Source: Alphaproteobacteria bacterium
GTDB lineage: Bacteria > Pseudomonadota > Alphaproteobacteria > GCA-2731375
Direction of reading: 5' to 3'
Assembly: GCA_965238305.1 (NCBI GenBank)
Contig: CBDEHK010000001.1
Span: forward strand, 1,298,391 to 1,362,390
Length of the DNA stretch: 64,000 nucleotides
In this document: one piece after another, positions 7,460-12,848 of the stretch
Position numbering within the stretch: position 1 is the first letter of the stretch
Layout: every line of letters starts with the position of its first letter
Made by a program: the position numbers and the translations under genes
Notes under the pieces: generated by a model
Databases searched by the model: none
What the model saw: only the letters and a program-made list of their open reading frames with translations
Told to the model about the DNA's origin: nothing

Positions 7460-7864
7460 CTACTCTTTATCGGTGGGTTCAAACGCAAGCGAGGCGGAAT
7501 TCATACAATATCGCAGGCCGCTCGGTTGCGGGCCGTCTTCGAAGACATGACCCAAATGGGCATCGCATTTGCTGCACAAAGCTTCGGTGCGGACCATGAA
7601 GTGGGAGCGATCGGTTTCCGTCTCCACATTGTCGCCATCGATTGGGCCCCAAAAGCTAGGCCAACCGGAACCAGACTCGAATTTTGTCTCGGACGAAAAG
7701 AGCGCCTGGCCGCAGCCGATGCAAGAAAAGACGCCGCTTCGTTTTTCGTCGTTCAGCGGTCCCGTAAAAGCCCGTTCGGTGCCTTTTTGCCGGGTAACGT
7801 AATAGGATTCCTCGCTCAATTGCTGGCGCCATTCGGCGTCCGTTTTTTGCACCTTTTCCGTCAT
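7460..7864 (-). CDS. msrB: peptide-methionine (R)-S-oxide reductase
   Basis: Product MTEKVQKTDAEWRQQLSEESYYVTRQKGTERAFTGPLNDEKRSGVFSCIGCGQALFSSETKFESGSGWPSFW...RTEALCSKCDAHLGHVFEDGP..RYC is a typical zinc-binding MsrB with 2x CxxC. Start set at ATG 7864 with RBS AGGAAG. The longer ORF-track start runs into the upstream gene. Confidence 0.9.
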   Translation of the reverse strand: MTEKVQKTDAEWRQQLSEESYYVTRQKGTERAFTGPLNDEKRSGVFSCIGCGQALFSSETKFESGSGWPSFWGPIDGDNVETETDRSHFMVRTEALCSKCDAHLGHVFEDGPQPSGLRYCMNSASLAFEPTDKE

Positions 7865-8580
7865 GATCTTCCTTTCAAGGCCGTTTGGATATTGGCCATT
7901 TGGATATCGATGTCGATATTCATGATCGACGTTATCTCCAGGTCGCGATCTTCGAAGACATGAGTTTCCAGCTTCTTCTCGCGCCAAGCCGCGATCTTAA
8001 TGTCTCTCTCCCGGATCAGCAATTCGATTTGCGGATAAAAAAACGCGACCATGGCCGTAAGCCAGCGATTGGTCGGCCAGGACGGCCAGGCATGGTCGAT
8101 TTGGAAGTGATCCAACAAGGCGATGGTATTGTCGCCAGTGAACCAATTCTCGTCCGTGACCCAGCGATTGGTGGTGAAAAGCTGTTCGGGGAAACCCTTT
8201 TTGTCCATAGAGATCGCAATTAGGTGGCAGACGATGTCATCGCCGCTTGGCCACTCGGTATCACTGTCGTTTTCGACCGGACCGGTAATATCGAGTAACC
8301 CTTCTTCGCGGATGAAGGTGTGGAAATGGCCATGTTCGCCGCTTTCCGGTCGATGCGCATGATAATAATATTGCCCGTGGGTCTCGCTATCATAGACATC
8401 GCCGTCGGGGTAATGATCCCATTCGTAAAACGTCTCGACCCGATTAATCAGTTCGTCGACCACGTTACCACTGATTTTGTGCAGGACGCGGTTGCATTCA
8501 AACACTTCTTCGCCACCCGCCTGCATTTTCCGCAAGCGCCCGGTGGAGAGGTCGGCAAAATTTATCTCACGTGTGGACAT
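7861..8580 (-). CDS. conserved hypothetical protein, His-rich, translationally coupled to msrB
   Basis: 239-aa ORF. Its stop overlaps the msrB start (ATGA). Contains the His-rich stretch YYYHAHRPESGEHGHFHTF. Family not recognised. Confidence 0.5.
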   Translation of the reverse strand: MSTREINFADLSTGRLRKMQAGGEEVFECNRVLHKISGNVVDELINRVETFYEWDHYPDGDVYDSETHGQYYYHAHRPESGEHGHFHTFIREEGLLDITGPVENDSDTEWPSGDDIVCHLIAISMDKKGFPEQLFTTNRWVTDENWFTGDNTIALLDHFQIDHAWPSWPTNRWLTAMVAFFYPQIELLIRERDIKIAAWREKKLETHVFEDRDLEITSIMNIDIDIQMANIQTALKGRS

Positions 8581-8614
8581 CGTTCATATTCTCAAATTGA
8601 GGTTTCTTGATAAC

Positions 8615-9487
8615 TTATTCCCGGACCAAGCGAAAGCCGATCAGGATATGTTTCAAATGATCTGGTCGGGAATGATGGGCGGCAGGCCGGCAGACGCCGC
8701 AACCTTTGTCGTCCCACGATCCACCCTTGACGATATGGCGGCCTTTGCCCTTTGCCGTTGCCGTCCATTCAAAAACTTGTCCAGCCGGATCGACAAGACC
8801 GTGTTGGCTGTTGCCTTTGGAGTATTGGCCGACCGGTACTGTATCGAAAGGCCCCATATCGTGGCTGTTGAGCCGGCTTGGATCATATTCATTGCCCCAG
8901 GGGAAGATTTTCCCTTCGTCACCGCGCGCGGCGCGTTCCCAGTCATCCTCGCTTGGTAGGCGCCAGTGATGGCCGGTTCGCCTGGACAACCACGCCGCGT
9001 AGGCCTGAACGTCGTCGAAGGACACCAATACAACCGGATGATCTTCCCGCCCTGCAGGCATCTGGCCATCCAACCAGGCATGCCGGCGGGTCCGCGTAAA
9101 TGGGTGGATCAGGCCATAACTTCGCCAAGTTGCCGAATCGACATTCGGTGTCGGATGGCCGGTTTGGTTGATGAATTCAGCATATTGCCGATTGGTGATG
9201 AGGGTTTGGGTAATCGCATAGGCTTTACCTTGGCGTTCAGATAGGGGCGGTTCGTCTTCGTACCATTTCTGTTGCCGGGTCACGCTATGGCCGTAGGCGG
9301 CTTCATCCAGCATATAGGCCAGTTCTTTTTCGGCGCGGTTTGAACCGATGAAATAGGATCCAGCTGGAATGTGAATAACTTCAGGTGCAGCGAGATCGCT
9401 TGCGAAGGTCGGTTGGCCCACAAATATCGCCGCCAGCACCGGCAAAATACCAATTGTTCCGATTTTACATCTGATTTTCTGCATCAC
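8615..9487 (-). CDS. formylglycine-generating enzyme (FGE/SUMF1) family protein, secreted
   Basis: Signal peptide (MMQKIRCKIGTIGILPVLAAIFVGQPTFA). FGE-sulfatase domain hallmarks are RVIRGGSW-like GGSWDD, HPVVLVSFDDVQAYAAWL, WRLPSEDDWERAARG and FPWGNEY. Confidence 0.8.
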   Translation of the reverse strand: MMQKIRCKIGTIGILPVLAAIFVGQPTFASDLAAPEVIHIPAGSYFIGSNRAEKELAYMLDEAAYGHSVTRQQKWYEDEPPLSERQGKAYAITQTLITNRQYAEFINQTGHPTPNVDSATWRSYGLIHPFTRTRRHAWLDGQMPAGREDHPVVLVSFDDVQAYAAWLSRRTGHHWRLPSEDDWERAARGDEGKIFPWGNEYDPSRLNSHDMGPFDTVPVGQYSKGNSQHGLVDPAGQVFEWTATAKGKGRHIVKGGSWDDKGCGVCRPAAHHSRPDHLKHILIGFRLVRE

Positions 9488-9629
9488 CCTCAGGTAAGTC
9501 GAAAATCCCCAAATAGAAAGGCCAATTGCGTCGAATCACATAATGGTGAGCCATTGTTACTAGTCTCCGTGATCAGAGGCGTCCACATTGGGTCCGGGAA
9601 CATCAACAATCAAATTGAGGAGGCACCTC

Positions 9630-10928
9630 ATGTACGCTCAAAAGAGCAAACTATTATCATCGACAGTCATTCCGTTGGTCGCCGTGGCGGCGTTGTCATC
9701 GGCTGGCGTCATTACCATGGCAAATATCAGTTTCGCGGCCAGCAGCGCGATACCCAACAACCCAACCGCGGTATCACGCCCGGCAACGCCAGACGGATCG
9801 TACCAGGTCGCAGCCTGTACCGCCAAGAAAGCGTGTAATCCGTGCGCGACCAAAAAGAAAGGCTGTAATCCTTGCAACCCCTGTGGGGCAAAAAAAGCCT
9901 GCAACCCATGCAATCCTTGCGCGACCAAGAAAGCCTGCAATCCTTGTAACCCTTGCGGTGCGAAAAAAGCTTGTGGCGCCTGCAATCCATGCAATCCGTG
10001 CGGTGGTGCATCTGCTGCGGGGTTATCACAAAAATGCATGGTGCCGCGGTTGATGAAGGCATCGCTTTGCAATCCTTGCAATCCTTGTGCGGCGAAAAAG
10101 GCCTGCAGTCCTTGCGGCGCAAAAAAAGCCTGCAATCCGTGCGCAACCAAGAAAGCTTGCAATCCTTGCGCAACGAAGAAAGCTTGCAACCCTTGTGCAA
10201 CCAAGAAAGCCTGCGGAGCTTGCAATCCCTGTGGCGCCAAGAAAGCCTGCGGAGCTTGTAATCCTTGCGCAACCAAAAAAGCCTGCAATCCATGCAATCC
10301 CTGTGGCGCCAAGAAAGCTTGTGGAACCTGCAATCCTTGCGCAACCAAAAAAGCCTGCAATCCATGCAATCCCTGTGGCGCCAAGAAAGCTTGCGGAGCC
10401 TGCAGTCCTTGTGGCGGCGCGGCGGCACCTGAATTAACCGCGGCAGAAGCCAATTCGGTTTATGACTGCTTGAAAGCCGATATGGTCAAAGGTTATGCAA
10501 AATCAGGACTGAAAGACGCCAAACATTATGCCGATTGGGACGGTTATTCGACGCAGCCTTATGTTTCCGACACCCATGGCGGCCGCTATGTGTTCAATCG
10601 TGGGAATGCGCAGGCCAAATCTTACGGCAAATATGAAGCGGCCGGCCGCATGCCGGTCGGTGCAAAATTGGCGAAAGACAGCTTTGTCGTCAAAACCAAC
10701 GGTAAAGTGGGCTCCGGGCCGCTCTTTATTATGGAAAAAATGGCCAAGGGCTTCAGTAAGGCAAGCGATAATTGGCGGTACACGATGGTGATGCCGAACG
10801 GTCAATTGTTCGGGATGACCAACGGCAAGAATTCTGCCGGAATGAAATTCTGTTATGAATGCCATGCCACTGTTGCGGAAGGCCAAGATAGTCTGATGTT
10901 CCTACCGGACGATTATCGGGTCAATTAG
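9630..10928 (+). CDS. secreted Cys-repeat protein fused to a cytochrome P460-like c-type haem domain
   Basis: ATG 9630 follows a GAGGAGG RBS. Signal peptide, then about 210 aa of tandem KKACNPC(NPC)(G/A)(A/T) repeats with over 60 Cys, mostly as CxPC pairs. The C-terminal roughly 160 aa carry a single CXXCH (FCYECHAT) near the C-terminus and resemble the cytochrome P460 / c'-beta family. Confidence 0.6.
   Translation: MYAQKSKLLSSTVIPLVAVAALSSAGVITMANISFAASSAIPNNPTAVSRPATPDGSYQVAACTAKKACNPCATKKKGCNPCNPCGAKKACNPCNPCATKKACNPCNPCGAKKACGACNPCNPCGGASAAGLSQKCMVPRLMKASLCNPCNPCAAKKACSPCGAKKACNPCATKKACNPCATKKACNPCATKKACGACNPCGAKKACGACNPCATKKACNPCNPCGAKKACGTCNPCATKKACNPCNPCGAKKACGACSPCGGAAAPELTAAEANSVYDCLKADMVKGYAKSGLKDAKHYADWDGYSTQPYVSDTHGGRYVFNRGNAQAKSYGKYEAAGRMPVGAKLAKDSFVVKTNGKVGSGPLFIMEKMAKGFSKASDNWRYTMVMPNGQLFGMTNGKNSAGMKFCYECHATVAEGQDSLMFLPDDYRVN
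9820..10430. repeat. in-frame coding tandem repeats with 27-nt (AAAGCCTGCAATCCTTGCGCAACCAAG-like) and 36-nt units
   Basis: Near-identical units recur roughly 25 times in the sequence. They cause long spurious stop-free antisense ORFs (9638..10453, 9727..10428, 10087..10437, 9953..10261). Confidence 0.85.
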
Positions 10929-10954
10929 CTCGGCAATCGTTCGCCCCCGAACTT

Positions 10955-10991
10955 GGCGGCAGTCCGATGACTGCCGCCATTTTCTTTTGTT
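10955..10991 (+). terminator. rho-independent terminator after the Cys-repeat/P460 gene
   Basis: GGCGGCAGT-CCGATG-ACTGCCGCC, a perfect 9-bp stem, followed by ATTTTCTTTTGTT. Confidence 0.7.
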
Positions 10992-11042: not shown

Positions 11043-11654
11043 ATGGCGCGGGTCGAGTTTTTCTTTGATTGTTCCAGTCCATGGACCTATCTGGCGTTCC
11101 ACAATTTCGCCGTGATGGCCGATGAATTGGGCCAGGCAGTGGAATGGAAACCGATCCTCGTCGGCGGGATATTCAATACCATCAATCCTTCCGTCTATGT
11201 TTCACGTGAAACACCGGTGCCGGCGAAGGCGCGATATCAGGCTAAGGACATGCAAGACTGGGCCCGCCAAGCTGGAATAAAGATCACCTGGCCGACCACG
11301 GTCTTTCCGGTCAACAGTGTGAAGGCGATGCGGGCTTGTATTGTCGCCGCGCAAAGCGACCGCTTGATGCCTTATGCCCGGGCCGTATTCGAAACCTATT
11401 GGGGGGACGATCGGGACATTAGTCAGGATGACGTGTTGGCCGATATTGCGACAAAATGCGGTTTCGATGCGCTGGAGATGGCTGAGAAAATCCAAACTGA
11501 CGAGATCAAACTGACGTTGCGAGAAAATACCGAGGCGTTGATGCGGCGCGGCGGCTTCGGTTCGCCGACGATTTTCCTTGATCGGGACGATATGTATTTT
11601 GGCAACGACCGCTTGCCCTTGGTGCGGGCGGCTCTGGCACGGGCGGCGGCTTGA
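11043..11654 (+). CDS. 2-hydroxychromene-2-carboxylate isomerase family / DsbA-like thioredoxin-fold protein
   Basis: N-terminal VEFFFDCSSPWTYLAF and overall length (203 aa) match the HCCA-isomerase (kappa-GST/DsbA-like) family. Confidence 0.7.
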   Translation: MARVEFFFDCSSPWTYLAFHNFAVMADELGQAVEWKPILVGGIFNTINPSVYVSRETPVPAKARYQAKDMQDWARQAGIKITWPTTVFPVNSVKAMRACIVAAQSDRLMPYARAVFETYWGDDRDISQDDVLADIATKCGFDALEMAEKIQTDEIKLTLRENTEALMRRGGFGSPTIFLDRDDMYFGNDRLPLVRAALARAAA

Positions 11655-11724
11655 CAGTACCAAACGCAACTGGCTGAATATGCTACCTGCCGATCTCGAT
11701 ATCCCGCGAAAGGAGGCGACTGAG

Positions 11725-12609
11725 ATGGATTATGTCAGTTATATCGACAAGACCCGCGATTATTATCTCTCGCAAGGTTACGACAAACCCTATCAATGGG
11801 CGCAGCATGATCAGGTGCCATTTCAAGCGCTGGAAAAACCGCTCGCTGGGTGCAAACTGGCGCTCCTGACGACCAGCGAACTCGCGATCAAATATGACGA
11901 GGCGACGGAAGAAAATCCTATCACCGAAGAAGGTTTCCGTAGCGTCTATGCCATTCCCGGCGACACTCGAAGCGAACTTTTTTATAGCCGCACCAACAGT
12001 TTTGATCGTTACGCCACCCATCTGGATGACGTGAACAGCTATTTCCCGGTCGATCGCTTGCGCGAAGCGCTGGCGGCCGGCCGCATCGCTGACATCCCAG
12101 AACGCCTTTATGGTGCCTATAATAATTACAGTGTCAAAAAAGTTCTCATCGACGAAGCGCCAAAAGCCCTGGCGATGTGCCGGGAAGACAACGTTGATGC
12201 AGCAATATTGGTCCCGGTCTGACCAGTTTGCCATCAGACCGTGAGTCTGATTGCCCGCTACCTGGAAGAACATGGCATCCCAACCGTGGTGATCGCGACG
12301 GCCCGGGATATTGTTGAAAGCTGCAATGTCCCGCGATTTTTGTTTGTCGATTTTCCCCTTGGTAATCCGTGTGGGGAACCCTTCAATGTGGCGCAGCAGC
12401 GGGAAATCTTCGAAAGTGCGTTAGGTGTGCTGGAAAACGCGACAGAACCCGGTATCACCATCGAAGCCGGCTATCGCTGGAGCCAGGGCGAAGCCTGGAA
12501 AGATAGCATCTTTACCGAAGCGCAACCGTTCCTATCAGGTGAGGCCAAGCAGGCTTGGCTGGATCGCAAAGACAAATACCGCGAGTTGAAACAGAAAGGC
12601 GAGCTTTGA
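11725..12609 (+). CDS. glycine/sarcosine/betaine/proline reductase protein B (GrdB/PrdB)-family selenoprotein candidate with an in-frame UGA (Sec) at 12220..12222
   Basis: Track ORFs 11578..12222 and 12241..12609 are in the same frame and separated only by TGA. Read-through gives ...AAILVPV-U-PVCHQTVSLIARYLEEHGIPTVVIATARDIV..., a UxxC motif. The UGA sits in the 5' arm of a 7-bp hairpin GGTCTGA-CCAGTTTGCCA-TCAGACC (12216..12240). N-terminal MDYVSYIDKTRDYYLSQGYDKPYQWAQHDQVPF resembles the GRDB family. Start set at ATG 11725 after an AGGAGG RBS. Confidence 0.55.
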
Positions 12610-12848
12610 TGGCGGCGGCGGTGATCGTCTATTCGACGCCATTTTGCATCCCGTGCGAACAGCTGAAGCAGTATCTCACCGATCACAATGTCGTCTTCGA
12701 AAGCCGCGACCTGATGATGGACGAAGGCGCGGCGGAACGCTTGGAAGCCTTCGGCATCCGCTCCACCCCGGCCCTGGAAGTGGCCGGTCAAATCTACGCC
12801 GGCGCCACCCTAACCCCGGAAAAAGTGCAGGAATTGCTGGAGCTGTAG
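12608..12848 (+). CDS. glutaredoxin-like small redox protein
   Basis: 80 aa, MAAAVIVYSTPFCIPCEQLKQYL..., with a CxxC (CIPC) active site in a glutaredoxin/NrdH-like context. Its start overlaps the upstream stop (TGATG). Confidence 0.7.

Follow-up and report, generated by a model that had tools for sequence, protein, structure and literature searches.

A PrdB-like selenoprotein and a 79-residue redoxin form a conserved two-gene unit that may act as a selenol/thiol redox relay

Three same-strand ORFs lie within positions 11043–12848 of a 64,000-nucleotide stretch of alphaproteobacterial DNA, which as a whole is termed the window here. The question raised by this locus is which of the three genes belong together and what reaction their products might carry out. 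The first-pass annotation had read them as a three-gene thiol-redox module, in which a Sec-containing GrdB/PrdB-like reductase is bracketed by a DsbA-like gene and a glutaredoxin-like gene, both supplying dedicated thiol donors. We examined each gene and its neighbours in related genomes, and the features that we refer to are collected in Table 1.

Table 1. Positions of the genes and signals discussed, in window coordinates.
Feature	Position	Strand	Details
Terminator-like hairpin and T-run, after the upstream P460-type gene	10954..10979	+	11-bp stem with 8 G-C pairs, then TTTTCTTTTG
Cytoplasmic DSBA-fold protein gene, HCCA-isomerase/GST-kappa type (neighbour, not core)	11043..11654	+	203 aa; PF01323
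Ribosome-binding site AAGGAGG	11711..11717	+	8 nt 5' of ATG 11725; read from sequence
Orphan PrdB/GrdB-like selenoprotein gene	11725..12609	+	294 aa, Sec166; start ATG 11725, not TTG 11578
In-frame UGA, selenocysteine U166	12220..12222	+	Motif U-P-V-C-H-Q-T; TGA in ~70/82 related loci
Cys169 codon, putative resolving Cys of UxxC	12229..12231	+	Invariant in alignment A1; >90% of alignments A2 and A3
SECIS hairpin	12230..12254	+	GC-C-AUCAGAC-CGUGA-GUCUGAU-U-GC, by folding; apical loop CGUGA begins 17 nt after UGA
Glutaredoxin-fold (NrdH/short-Trx-like) redoxin gene	12609..12848	+	79 aa; PF00462, 45.5 bits; conserved adjacency

The middle gene is a genuine selenoprotein gene, with a real Sec codon and a SECIS element, and this part of the first-pass annotation stands. 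PrdB/GrdB-type homology flanks the in-frame TGA on both sides in ~70 other species, and in close-clade loci tblastn matches spanning residues 1–294 cross the TGA. Codon 166 is TGC or TGT in 12 of the 82 related loci, Bordetella among them, and Cys is invariant at column 166 in 19 aligned full-length homologues. Across 68 distinct Sec-form sequences, 96.1% of the cells of the SECIS stem are paired, compared to 20–33% when the 3' partners are slid, and pair 15–31 shows a compensatory change, from C-G (57 sequences) to U-A (8 sequences). Third-position synonymous sites are frozen inside the hairpin only, and in the Sec forms only. The hairpin is kept in all Sec forms and lost in the Cys forms, which carry ACC-AUC-AGC where the Sec forms have ACC-GUG-AGU. 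Rfam gave no match to the hairpin. SelA, SelB, SelD and tRNA-Sec were absent from the scanned ORFs and the tRNA search of the 64-kb window, in which the sole tRNA is Gly-CCC; thus, we infer the Sec competence of the genome from the SECIS element alone.

The extent of this gene required correction. Its 5' region overlaps the DsbA-like gene, as had been claimed, only when the ORF is extended back as far as the TTG at 11578. The start Met encoded at 11725 is common to all full-length homologues (alignment A1), and with this as the true start there is no overlap, the DsbA-like stop (11654) and the reductase ATG being separated by a 70-nt gap. Gene callers break the reductase gene into two ORFs, encoding 165 and 122 residues, a split in routine annotation that the present result corrects. 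In total, 663 homologues of the PrdB-like protein were found, and at least 590 GTDB species carry the gene.

The best curated match of the reductase is the PrdB model TIGR04483 (E 3e-26), with residues 33–251 aligned to model positions 20–233 of 238, but the score of 92.3 bits lies well under the cut-off of 300. The scores against TIGR01917 (33.8 bits, cut-off 602), TIGR01918 (30.4 bits, cut-off 65.45) and PF07355 (18.8 bits, cut-off 22, which a few homologues just pass) are also too low, and the reductase thus misses the cut-off of every curated PrdB/GrdB model. U166 falls near U151 of PrdB, an equivalence taken from HMM coordinates rather than from a printed alignment. Beyond the PrdB model, the family has conserved extra segments at the N-terminus (residues 1–32) and the C-terminus (residues 252–294). 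About 50 columns are invariant in a 20-sequence alignment, and 22 remain so across 70 sequences from several phyla; these include Y6, Y14, Y23, W25, D94, T98, D102, S136, D195, R204, the DFPLGN motif, W252 and W258. A sequence search returned no homologues of solved structure. In an AF2 model (pLDDT 88.7), built for a Cys homologue with 57% identity rather than for the window protein itself, the position of U166 comes directly after strand 159–163, at the start of helix 167–182, so that the UxxC motif is placed like a redox site in the predicted fold.

Could the middle protein nevertheless be the B subunit of a true D-proline or glycine/betaine reductase, with the other subunits encoded elsewhere? 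The similarity is significant over nearly the whole PrdB model, the UxxC motif matches, and public annotations and selenoproteome surveys alike say PrdB. However, the scores are far under all curated cut-offs, and the conserved segments at both ends set the protein apart. In the canonical systems, prdA is paired with prdB and grdA with grdB in an operon (PMC13188914, PMC11229817), but no PrdA/GrdA-type operon neighbour was present at ~90 loci from many phyla. The ~48 window ORFs scanned contained no Grd/Prd partner families, in agreement with the first-pass annotation, and PrdA, PrdH/PrdC, GrdA, GrdE and GrdC/D were missing from nine Pfam-annotated contexts or related flanks. The hosts also argue against such an enzyme: they include groups such as Rhodospirillales, Pseudomonadales and Bordetella, which are presumably mainly aerobic heterotrophs. 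A true proline or glycine/betaine reductase is therefore extremely improbable. The name PrdB is almost certainly wrong for this family, as judged from its gene neighbourhoods, because no prdA lies beside the gene in any locus examined.

What does lie beside it is the small redoxin gene. The 80-aa glutaredoxin-like gene previously described at this position is correct in its CIPC motif, its TGATG overlap and its PF00462 membership, but the protein has 79 residues, the 80th codon being the stop. The redoxin ATG (12609–12611) and the reductase stop TGA (12607–12609) share one base, and the active site C13-I-P-C16 has its Cys codons at 12645–12647 and 12654–12656. The PF00462 score compares to a gathering threshold of 22.9 (E 9e-12), while the cut-offs of the NrdH model TIGR02194 (39.1 vs 85.75) and the YruB model TIGR02196 (52.7 vs 88.55) are not reached. 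Among solved structures, those of 78-aa Trx-like proteins and of NrdH come closest to the redoxin. Among 32 partners, C16 is invariant and position 13 is C or U; in six Rokubacteria/Methylomirabilota loci the first Cys is encoded by TGA, followed by a conserved hairpin of its own. From this pattern, the first Cys is the predicted attacking residue.

The Grx-like gene is found directly 3' of the reductase gene in 33 of 34 close-clade loci, with a spacing of −8 to +71 nt, in Proteobacteria, Chloroflexi, Acidimicrobiia and Rokubacteria/Methylomirabilota. It was directly downstream in six of six further look-ups and was present in every Pfam-annotated look-up, and reverse look-ups from Grx homologues revealed split reductase ORFs directly upstream in three of three cases. 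A more distant reductase subfamily (~49 loci) has no adjacent Grx, and the redoxin is thus not universally needed in cis. ORF clustering over 83 loci revealed no third conserved gene, and the context beyond the Grx gene is highly variable between loci. Neighbours were taken from the Pfam-annotated look-ups; picking of the longest flanking ORFs was dropped, as it yielded many spurious high-GC shadow ORFs. The conserved unit therefore consists of two genes, encoding the PrdB-like protein and the 79-aa redoxin. Of the dedicated thiol donors that had been proposed, the Grx-like protein is upheld by these data.

The DsbA-like protein is not. Its assignment to the HCCA-isomerase/DsbA fold is sound (PF01323, 133 bits, E 1.4e-38), with matches to PDB 3fz5 (2.1e-19), 2imd (4.4e-17) and GSTK1 (3e-13), whose FDFSS/FDFLSP aligns with its FDCSSP. 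A DsbA-type thiol:disulfide oxidoreductase has a CxxC at the N-terminus of helix 1. By contrast, the motif here is FDCSSPWTYL, in which SPWT replaces CPxC; Ser-Pro likewise takes the place of the DsbA Cys-Pro in HCCA isomerase and GST kappa (PDB 3fz5, 2imd, 1yzx). SSPW is invariant in 80 DsbA-like homologues, whereas the lone nearby Cys, Cys10, is I or V in eight of them. The lack of a CxxC rules the protein out as a dithiol electron donor.

The genetic arrangement in the window did favour a module of all three genes, in which the DsbA-like and Grx-like proteins would both be dedicated thiol donors of the reductase. The genes are on one strand with spacings of 70 nt and −1 nt, no terminator-like site lies between them, and the only plus-strand terminator-like site 3' of the DsbA start (12304–12333) is inside the reductase gene. 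The hairpin upstream of the trio is likely the upstream boundary of the transcription unit, and the DsbA-like gene is possibly co-transcribed with the reductase gene in the window. The trio recurs in L083 and in L164, and glutathione-linked enzymes (GSTs) recur close to the reductase-redoxin pair in L172 and in L165/L173, which represent two further lineages. However, co-occurrence, whose failure the first-pass annotation had itself named as grounds for refutation, does not bear the module out. A species scan found no DsbA homologue within 6 kb at any of 82 other reductase loci, and of 80 loci retrieved with the DsbA-like protein as query, a single one (L083) has a reductase. The other 79 lack it, the downstream sequence being long enough to reveal one in 44 of the 80. 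The trio is thus limited to the window, L083 and L164, the last of which shares wider synteny with the window, so that the adjacency may be merely inherited. The closest reductase relatives, L163 (78% across the N-terminal fragment of 165 aa) and L003 (74%), have no DsbA gene, and the relatives of the DsbA-like protein are glutathione-dependent isomerases/transferases rather than dithiol donors. As a general arrangement the three-gene module is refuted by this lack of co-occurrence, and for the window itself we consider it very improbable. The DsbA-like gene is a lineage-specific neighbour outside the conserved system.

Other neighbours were considered for clues to the substrate. Two acyl-CoA dehydrogenase genes adjoin the window locus, CoA-transferase, AMP-binding and ECH genes occur at other loci, and in Bordetella a CoA-transferase gene overlaps the 3' end of the Grx gene. 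Against a background of 80 loci, acyl-CoA dehydrogenase density is 1.9 near the reductase and 1.7 in the background per 100 kb, AMP-binding density is 1.3 and 0.8 per 100 kb, and CoA-transferase genes number 12 and 1 (p ~0.06, hand calculation), mostly in Burkholderiales. With no clear enrichment over the background, an acyl-CoA neighbourhood was set aside. An AMP-binding (adenylating) enzyme is fused to the PrdB-like domain in three separate 50%-identity clusters, and these fusions are the only acyl-CoA-type clue that we retain, as a weak hint. Taken with the invariant residues and the Bordetella CoA-transferase gene, they hint at a small-molecule, carboxylate-linked substrate. In another lineage (L166–L168), the pair lies directly 3' of ECF sigma factor and Cupin_7 genes, adjoined by CMAS, DUF1365 and amine-oxidase genes, a set that we take to resemble the RpoE-ChrR singlet-oxygen regulon. 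In L164, an MsrB (SelR) gene is located five genes from the pair.

We favour, with a probability of about 60%, the reading that the pair forms a pyruvoyl-independent, self-contained two-protein selenol/thiol redox relay. In such a relay, the U-P-V-C motif of the cytoplasmic 294-aa PrdB-like protein, with its Sec166 and Cys169, would cap the N-terminus of an α-helix, with the selenolate of Sec166 acting as the nucleophile and a Sec166–Cys169 selenenylsulfide presumably forming after turnover. The translationally coupled 79-aa redoxin (C13-x-P-C16) would then re-reduce this selenenylsulfide, the electrons probably flowing in that direction, and would itself be recharged by a general cell system. 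Here thioredoxin reductase seems likelier than glutathione, because the redoxin is NrdH/short-Trx-like and has no Grx glutathione-binding motifs. The enzyme would need no pyruvoyl subunit (PrdA/GrdE), GrdA or GrdC/D, and would therefore not be a proline or glycine reductase. By analogy to PrdB, the most likely chemistry is reductive C-X bond cleavage in a small molecule, at a position adjoining a carboxyl or acyl group and with a leaving group that would need no imine activation. Yet the reductase family has many natural Cys forms, and the U151C variant of canonical PrdB is inactive (PMC11229817); thus, thiol-disulfide chemistry would fit at least as well as C-X cleavage.

The last point bears on whether the pair might instead be an oxidoreductase for protection or repair (for example, a peroxidase, or a sulfoxide or disulfide/persulfide reductase), in which U166–C169 reduces oxidised S or O and the Grx-like protein recycles it. 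The relay architecture would be the same and the chemistry alone would differ. Such a role would suit a pair that stands alone amid very different gene contexts, in hosts that include supposedly aerobic groups, and thiol oxidoreductase families typically show such frequent exchange of Sec and Cys. The sigma factor/Cupin_7 context and the nearby MsrB gene point the same way, and in a 2006 survey 'Proline reductase' is flagged as homologous to thiol-based oxidoreductases (PMC1794560). On the other hand, the stress-regulon context is found in one lineage only, the very many invariant residues with aromatic or charged side chains suggest a pocket for a specific ligand, and the AMP-binding fusions indicate a carboxylate as the substrate. 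Moreover, homology could be detected to PrdB/GrdB alone, and in these the Sec attacks carbon (PMC11229817). We therefore regard a protective enzyme as rather unlikely. A bolder proposal, which we again regard as rather unlikely, is that the pair is an unrecognised pyruvoyl-independent selenoenzyme of largely aerobic bacteria, which would reductively cleave a C-X bond of an activated carboxylic acid (acyl-CoA or acyl-AMP) or of an onium compound, for example glycine betaine, with the Grx-like protein as a dedicated electron carrier or even a GrdA-like acceptor. If true, this would provide a real reaction for a selenoprotein family that is among the most abundant in the sea and has been mislabelled 'proline reductase' for ~20 years.

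Under the name "PrdB", in use in selenoproteome surveys since 2005, the family is placed by these surveys among the leading selenoproteins of the sea. The Sargasso Sea (2005) and GOS (2008) surveys listed 42 and 235 ocean-metagenome sequences, respectively, as 'Proline reductase PrdB (UxxC)', a UxxC selenoprotein family that was detected by computation only and has pfam07355-type similarity. In all probability it is the family described here, the two being equated by description rather than by sequence comparison. Neither the absence of PrdA nor the Grx-like partner and its Sec form is mentioned in the marine surveys. Our literature search found no functional or biochemical study of any PrdB-like or GrdB-like family member. 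The two-gene reductase-redoxin unit makes the reaction of this family directly approachable by experiment, with natural Cys versions in Bordetella bronchiseptica, which is culturable and genetically tractable and whose redoxin has 82 residues, and with a version in Rokubacteria that has Sec in both proteins.

How does the pair compare to known systems? The reductase is homologous to PrdB of Clostridioides/Acetoanaerobium (TIGR04483) over almost the full PrdB length, and the Sec of UxxC occupies the corresponding position, U151 of the C. difficile protein and U166 here. Both proteins are cytoplasmic, and dithiol-type regeneration is expected in both. However, the PrdB system has the PrdA pyruvoyl subunit, the PrdH maturase and PrdC, none of which was found with the reductase here, while the latter has a dedicated Grx-like partner, common natural Cys forms and extra N- and C-terminal segments. 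Homology to GrdB/GrdF/GrdH (PF07355, TIGR01917/01918) is more distant and confined to the C-terminal half (model positions ~200–430). The Sec-x-x-Cys arrangement is common to both, but the GrdB motif is UxxCxxC (PMC13188914), compared to UxxCHQT here with the third Cys absent; the reductase also lacks the N-terminal half of GrdB, and the GrdB operon partners GrdA, GrdE and GrdC/D were not found at its loci. The redoxin resembles the NrdH-redoxins and short Trx-like proteins (PDB 1r7h, 4fiw, 3zij; YruB TIGR02196) in having 75–85 residues, a glutaredoxin fold and an N-terminal CxxC. Just as nrdH adjoins nrdEF, the redoxin gene adjoins that of the enzyme that its product presumably reduces. Unlike NrdH and YruB, the redoxin carries a signature of its own, VYsTP(L/F)(C/U)xPCExLK...D(L/V)MxDExAA, and in Rokubacteria/Methylomirabilota it is itself a selenoprotein.

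The conserved module at this locus consists of two genes, a PrdB/GrdB-like selenoprotein (the reductase, gene 2) and a Grx-like redoxin (gene 3), not three, and the DsbA-like gene ahead of them (gene 1) is incidental. We searched the three window proteins by tblastn against 82 related reductase loci, taking flanks of up to 6 kb per side as the contig allowed; 80 of these loci came from a GTDB scan of one genome per species, in which at least 592 species had a reductase relative, and two from a Bordetella look-up. A Grx-like gene lies directly downstream of the reductase in 33 of 34 close-clade loci, including the window (the exception is locus L026), and the spacing in the close full-length clade is -8 to +71 nt, mostly -4 to +7. 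This clade ranges over Alpha-, Beta-, Gamma- and Deltaproteobacteria, Chloroflexi, Acidimicrobiia and Rokubacteria/Methylomirabilota. Conversely, the reductase, split into ORFs of 165 and 122 aa, precedes all three Grx homologues retrieved (63-71% identity). One Dehalococcoidia locus (L063) also carries the Grx-like gene, and no adjacent Grx was found in a more distant subfamily of ~49 loci, most of which match only to residue ~260. In seven look-ups with precomputed Pfam annotation, the pair sits in otherwise unrelated surroundings.

The first-pass annotation had proposed a three-gene thiol-redox module with dedicated donors. The reductase-Grx pair bears out a dedicated redoxin, but the DsbA-like gene does not belong: a homologue was found at 0 of the 82 loci, and with the DsbA-like protein as query only one of 80 metagenome loci (60-70% identity), the closest (L083), had a reductase downstream. 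Since the adjacency was seen, besides the window, only at L083 and the syntenic locus L164, the trio is a feature of one lineage. L164 (reductase 73% and DsbA 70% identical to the window) shares the order HAD hydrolase, DUF6969, FGE-sulfatase, P460, DsbA, reductase, Grx, two acyl-CoA dehydrogenases and epimerase; upstream genes differ at L163 (78% across the N-terminal 165-aa fragment) and L003 (74%), whose reductases are closest to that of the window. When the flank ORFs of 83 loci were all clustered, no further neighbor with wide conservation emerged, and no Grd/Prd partner family was detected among the ~48 window ORFs scanned, in agreement with the earlier statement that the canonical partners are missing.

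Two features lie upstream. The DUF6969 and FGE-sulfatase-domain genes (window 7861-9487, minus strand) are kept as an adjacent pair in L164:1155-2760, where a MsrB (SelR) gene adjoins them. Window 9588-10928 (plus strand) encodes a 446-aa protein with a signal-peptide-like N-terminus, ~25 tandem Cys-rich units (CNPCNPCGAKKA / CNPCATKKA; DNA periods 27, 36 and 72) and no Pfam or NCBIfam match. The last 148 aa, which terminate in a CYECH haem motif, share 80% identity with an L164 ORF annotated as Cytochrome_P460, making this an unusual fusion of a Cys/Pro/Lys-rich repeat with a P460-type cytochrome.

Features of the locus and Sec-form redoxin genes of related loci (L-numbers)
Feature	Coordinates	Strand	Basis
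Strong terminator-like hairpin ahead of gene 1	10954-10979	+	Terminator scan
Gene 1, DSBA-fold protein, 203 aa	11043-11654	+	PF01323, E 1.4e-38
Gene 2, PrdB/GrdB-like selenoprotein, 294 codons + stop, codon 166 = TGA	11725-12609	+	ATG start, homologue alignment
Gene 3, Grx-like redoxin, 79 aa, C13-I-P-C16	12609-12848	+	Translation
Sec-form redoxin gene	L022:6728-6967		TGA at first Cys of CxxC
Sec-form redoxin gene	L028:5728-5982		TGA at first Cys of CxxC
Sec-form redoxin gene	L029:6873-7124		TGA at first Cys of CxxC
Sec-form redoxin gene	L030:6882-7130		TGA at first Cys of CxxC
Sec-form redoxin gene	L031:6878-7117		TGA at first Cys of CxxC
Sec-form redoxin gene	L032:6879-7118		TGA at first Cys of CxxC

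A mechanical ORF listing renders gene 2 as two same-frame ORFs (11578-12222 and 12241-12609) separated by the TGA at 12220-12222. Its true start is ATG 11725, because AAGGAGG lies 8 nt upstream and all full-length homologues in a 20-sequence alignment begin at the matching Met (M-x-x-V-x-Y-I-D-K-T-R). The reported overlap of gene 1 with gene 2 was thus an artefact of a TTG-extended ORF, and a 70-nt gap separates them; the gene 3 ATG does overlap the reductase stop, sharing its A (TGATG). A terminator-like hairpin precedes gene 1 and the window scan found none between the three genes, so they may be co-transcribed in this genome; the only other plus-strand site downstream of the gene 1 start lies inside gene 2 (12304-12333).

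Gene 2 is a genuine selenoprotein gene. A protein search returned 663 relatives, many of them 165-aa products ending exactly at the UGA (one 100% identical) and many others full length (~294 aa). In the 20-sequence alignment the codon 166 column is an invariant Cys inside an invariant C/U-P-V-C-H-Q motif. Among the 82 related loci, codon 166 is TGA in ~70 and TGC/TGT in 12, these Cys forms occurring in Bordetella, other Burkholderiales and some Alphaproteobacteria. Downstream of every TGA is CAY-CAG-ACC-GUG-AGU-CUG-RU, which folds as a hairpin with a 7-bp core, two outer pairs and a CGUGA loop starting 17 nt past the UGA. Of the pair cells in 68 distinct Sec-form sequences, 96.1% are standard pairs, vs 20-33% after shifting the 3' partners by 1-3 columns, and pair 15-31 is C-G in 57 and U-A in 8, the window being a U-A case. 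Third codon positions within the hairpin (ACC, GUG, AGU, CUG) are almost invariant, and just outside it variation is free. Cys forms read ACC-AUC-AGC (Thr-Ile-Ser), with the stem broken. At residue 173 (codons at window 12238-12246 and in related loci) virtually every Sec form has Val (GUG) and every Cys form Ile (AUC), the next residue being Ser encoded by AGU and AGC, respectively; the SECIS loop dictates this Val/Ile difference, which tracks the Sec/Cys state. No Sec machinery genes lie within the 64-kb window. Public gene calls split the reductase into 165-aa and 122-aa ORFs in the window and in L163-L176, a systematic annotation artefact; P0019, the database entry for the window itself, is the truncated 165-aa product.

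The best curated match of the reductase is PrdB TIGR04483 (E 3e-26, model positions 20-233 of 238), with 92 bits vs a cut-off of 300. The GrdB/F/H models and the umbrella model TIGR01918 gave 30-35 bits vs cut-offs of 65-800, and Pfam GRDB 18.8, below its threshold of 22. Because all these cut-offs were missed, the protein falls outside every curated family; it has a core the size of PrdB (residues 33-251), extended by additional conserved segments at both termini. An exhaustive profile search recovered 2972 representative clusters at E ≤1e-3 and 209 at ≤1e-30; the locus is unremarkable within this widespread, uncharacterised family. No solved structure related by sequence was found. In an AF2 model of a 57%-identical Cys homologue (pLDDT 88.7, pTM 0.88), residue 166 is predicted to follow strand 159-163 directly and to N-cap helix 167-182, the classic place for redox-active CxxC/UxxC motifs.

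The gene family is known in silico. In selenoproteome surveys "Proline reductase PrdB, UxxC" counts as one of the most abundant selenoproteins of marine origin (PMC1088965, PMC2398784), with 42 sequences from the Sargasso Sea (PMC1088965) and 235 selenoproteins plus 110 Cys homologues in GOS (PMC2398784), the latter paper making no mention of prdA or operon context. Anaeromyxobacter and Geobacter are listed in a 2006 survey as carrying a "proline reductase" selenoprotein (PMC1794560), and in recent reviews TIGR04483 and the clostridial enzyme still define the PrdB family (PMC9312934, PMC13188914). No functional study turned up in the literature searched, whose coverage was incomplete. That the family is not a proline reductase, that it has a conserved Grx-fold redoxin partner, with Sec in some phyla, and that the DsbA-like gene is incidental appear to be undocumented.

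The gene 3 product has a glutaredoxin fold (PF00462, 45.5 bits), scores under the NrdH and YruB cut-offs, and has 78-aa Trx-like proteins and NrdH-redoxins as its nearest solved relatives. Its gene has TGA in place of the first CxxC Cys codon at six Rokubacteria/Methylomirabilota loci (U-R-P-C, U-G-P-C), with a conserved CCUGCGGUCCGCAGG hairpin ~28 nt downstream. These loci are therefore two-selenoprotein operons, and the Sec marks that redoxin residue as the attacking nucleophile.

The gene 1 product, which matches HCCA isomerases (3fz5 2e-19, 2imd 4e-17) and GST kappa, cannot serve as a dithiol donor. Where DsbA has Cys-Pro-x-Cys it has Ser-Pro-Trp-Thr (F-D-C-S-S-P-W-T-Y-L), and across 80 homologues SSPW is invariant and Cys10 is replaced by I or V in 8. 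GST-type genes lie within 1-2 genes of the pair in three unrelated contexts (L172:4272-5228; L165:7889-8596 / L173:6004-6711; window 11043-11654), either canonical GST or, in the window, GST-kappa/HCCA-isomerase type; this recurrence could be chance or a glutathione link.

In the accepted Prd mechanism, the enzyme is left as a selenenylsulfide needing re-reduction. The substrate is held on the PrdA pyruvoyl group, the PrdB Sec attacks the alpha-carbon, and PrdA, PrdB and PrdH suffice for activity, U151C being inactive (PMC11229817). The present system has a Sec-x-x-Cys centre on a PrdB-type scaffold and a CxxC/UxxC redoxin obligatorily linked to it in the close clade, and neither a pyruvoyl subunit nor another conserved partner was found in the window or the flanks of related loci. 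Sec166 would be the nucleophile and Cys169 would resolve the intermediate, forming a Se-S bond that redoxin C13 (U in Rokubacteria/Methylomirabilota) would attack and C16 resolve; thioredoxin reductase or glutathione would recharge the redoxin. Because there is no imine-forming cofactor subunit, the substrate would have to be either a compound with an activated carbon that bears a good leaving group or an oxidised S/O species.

We favour a specific small-molecule C-X reductase, since invariant aromatic and charged residues are unusually dense in the alignments and the family includes adenylating-enzyme fusions. In three of the top clusters, P0143, P0144 and P0146 (separate at 50% identity), a PrdB-like domain of the Cys form is fused to an acyl-adenylate-forming (AMP-binding) enzyme, which may be a Rosetta-stone pointer to carboxylic-acid activation; the contig of P0144 carries the fusion as an intact 805-aa ORF (L177:363-2780). 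The Grx gene of Bordetella overlaps at its end with a CoA-transferase gene. In B. bronchiseptica (L001:369-7365) this Cys-form reductase-Grx-CoA-transferase operon lies ~1.5 kb from the pertussis toxin (ptx) cluster, with a TctC-family gene between. Neighbor densities per 100 kb at reductase loci vs the DsbA-locus background were 1.3 vs 0.8 for AMP-binding, 0.7 vs 0.6 for ECH, 1.9 vs 1.7 for acyl-CoA dehydrogenase and 1.45 (12 genes) vs 0.28 (1 gene) for CoA-transferase (p ~0.06, hand calculation). None of these enrichments is convincing, and the window's two adjacent acyl-CoA dehydrogenases are therefore not to be taken as partners.

The pair might instead be a protective oxidoreductase, as hinted by one lineage (L166:3566-6134, L167 and L168) in which it lies directly downstream of ECF sigma factor and Cupin_7 genes. 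With the CMAS, DUF1365 and amine-oxidase genes alongside, this set resembles the RpoE-ChrR singlet-oxygen regulon and hints at a stress role. The invariant residues and AMP-binding fusions favour a C-X reductase, and we regard a protective function as the less likely reading.

The locus would not surprise a selenoprotein specialist, and it makes a 20-year-old question directly testable. Compared with the Sec-dependent Grd/Prd reductases, its architecture is a variant, a reductase paired with a redoxin.
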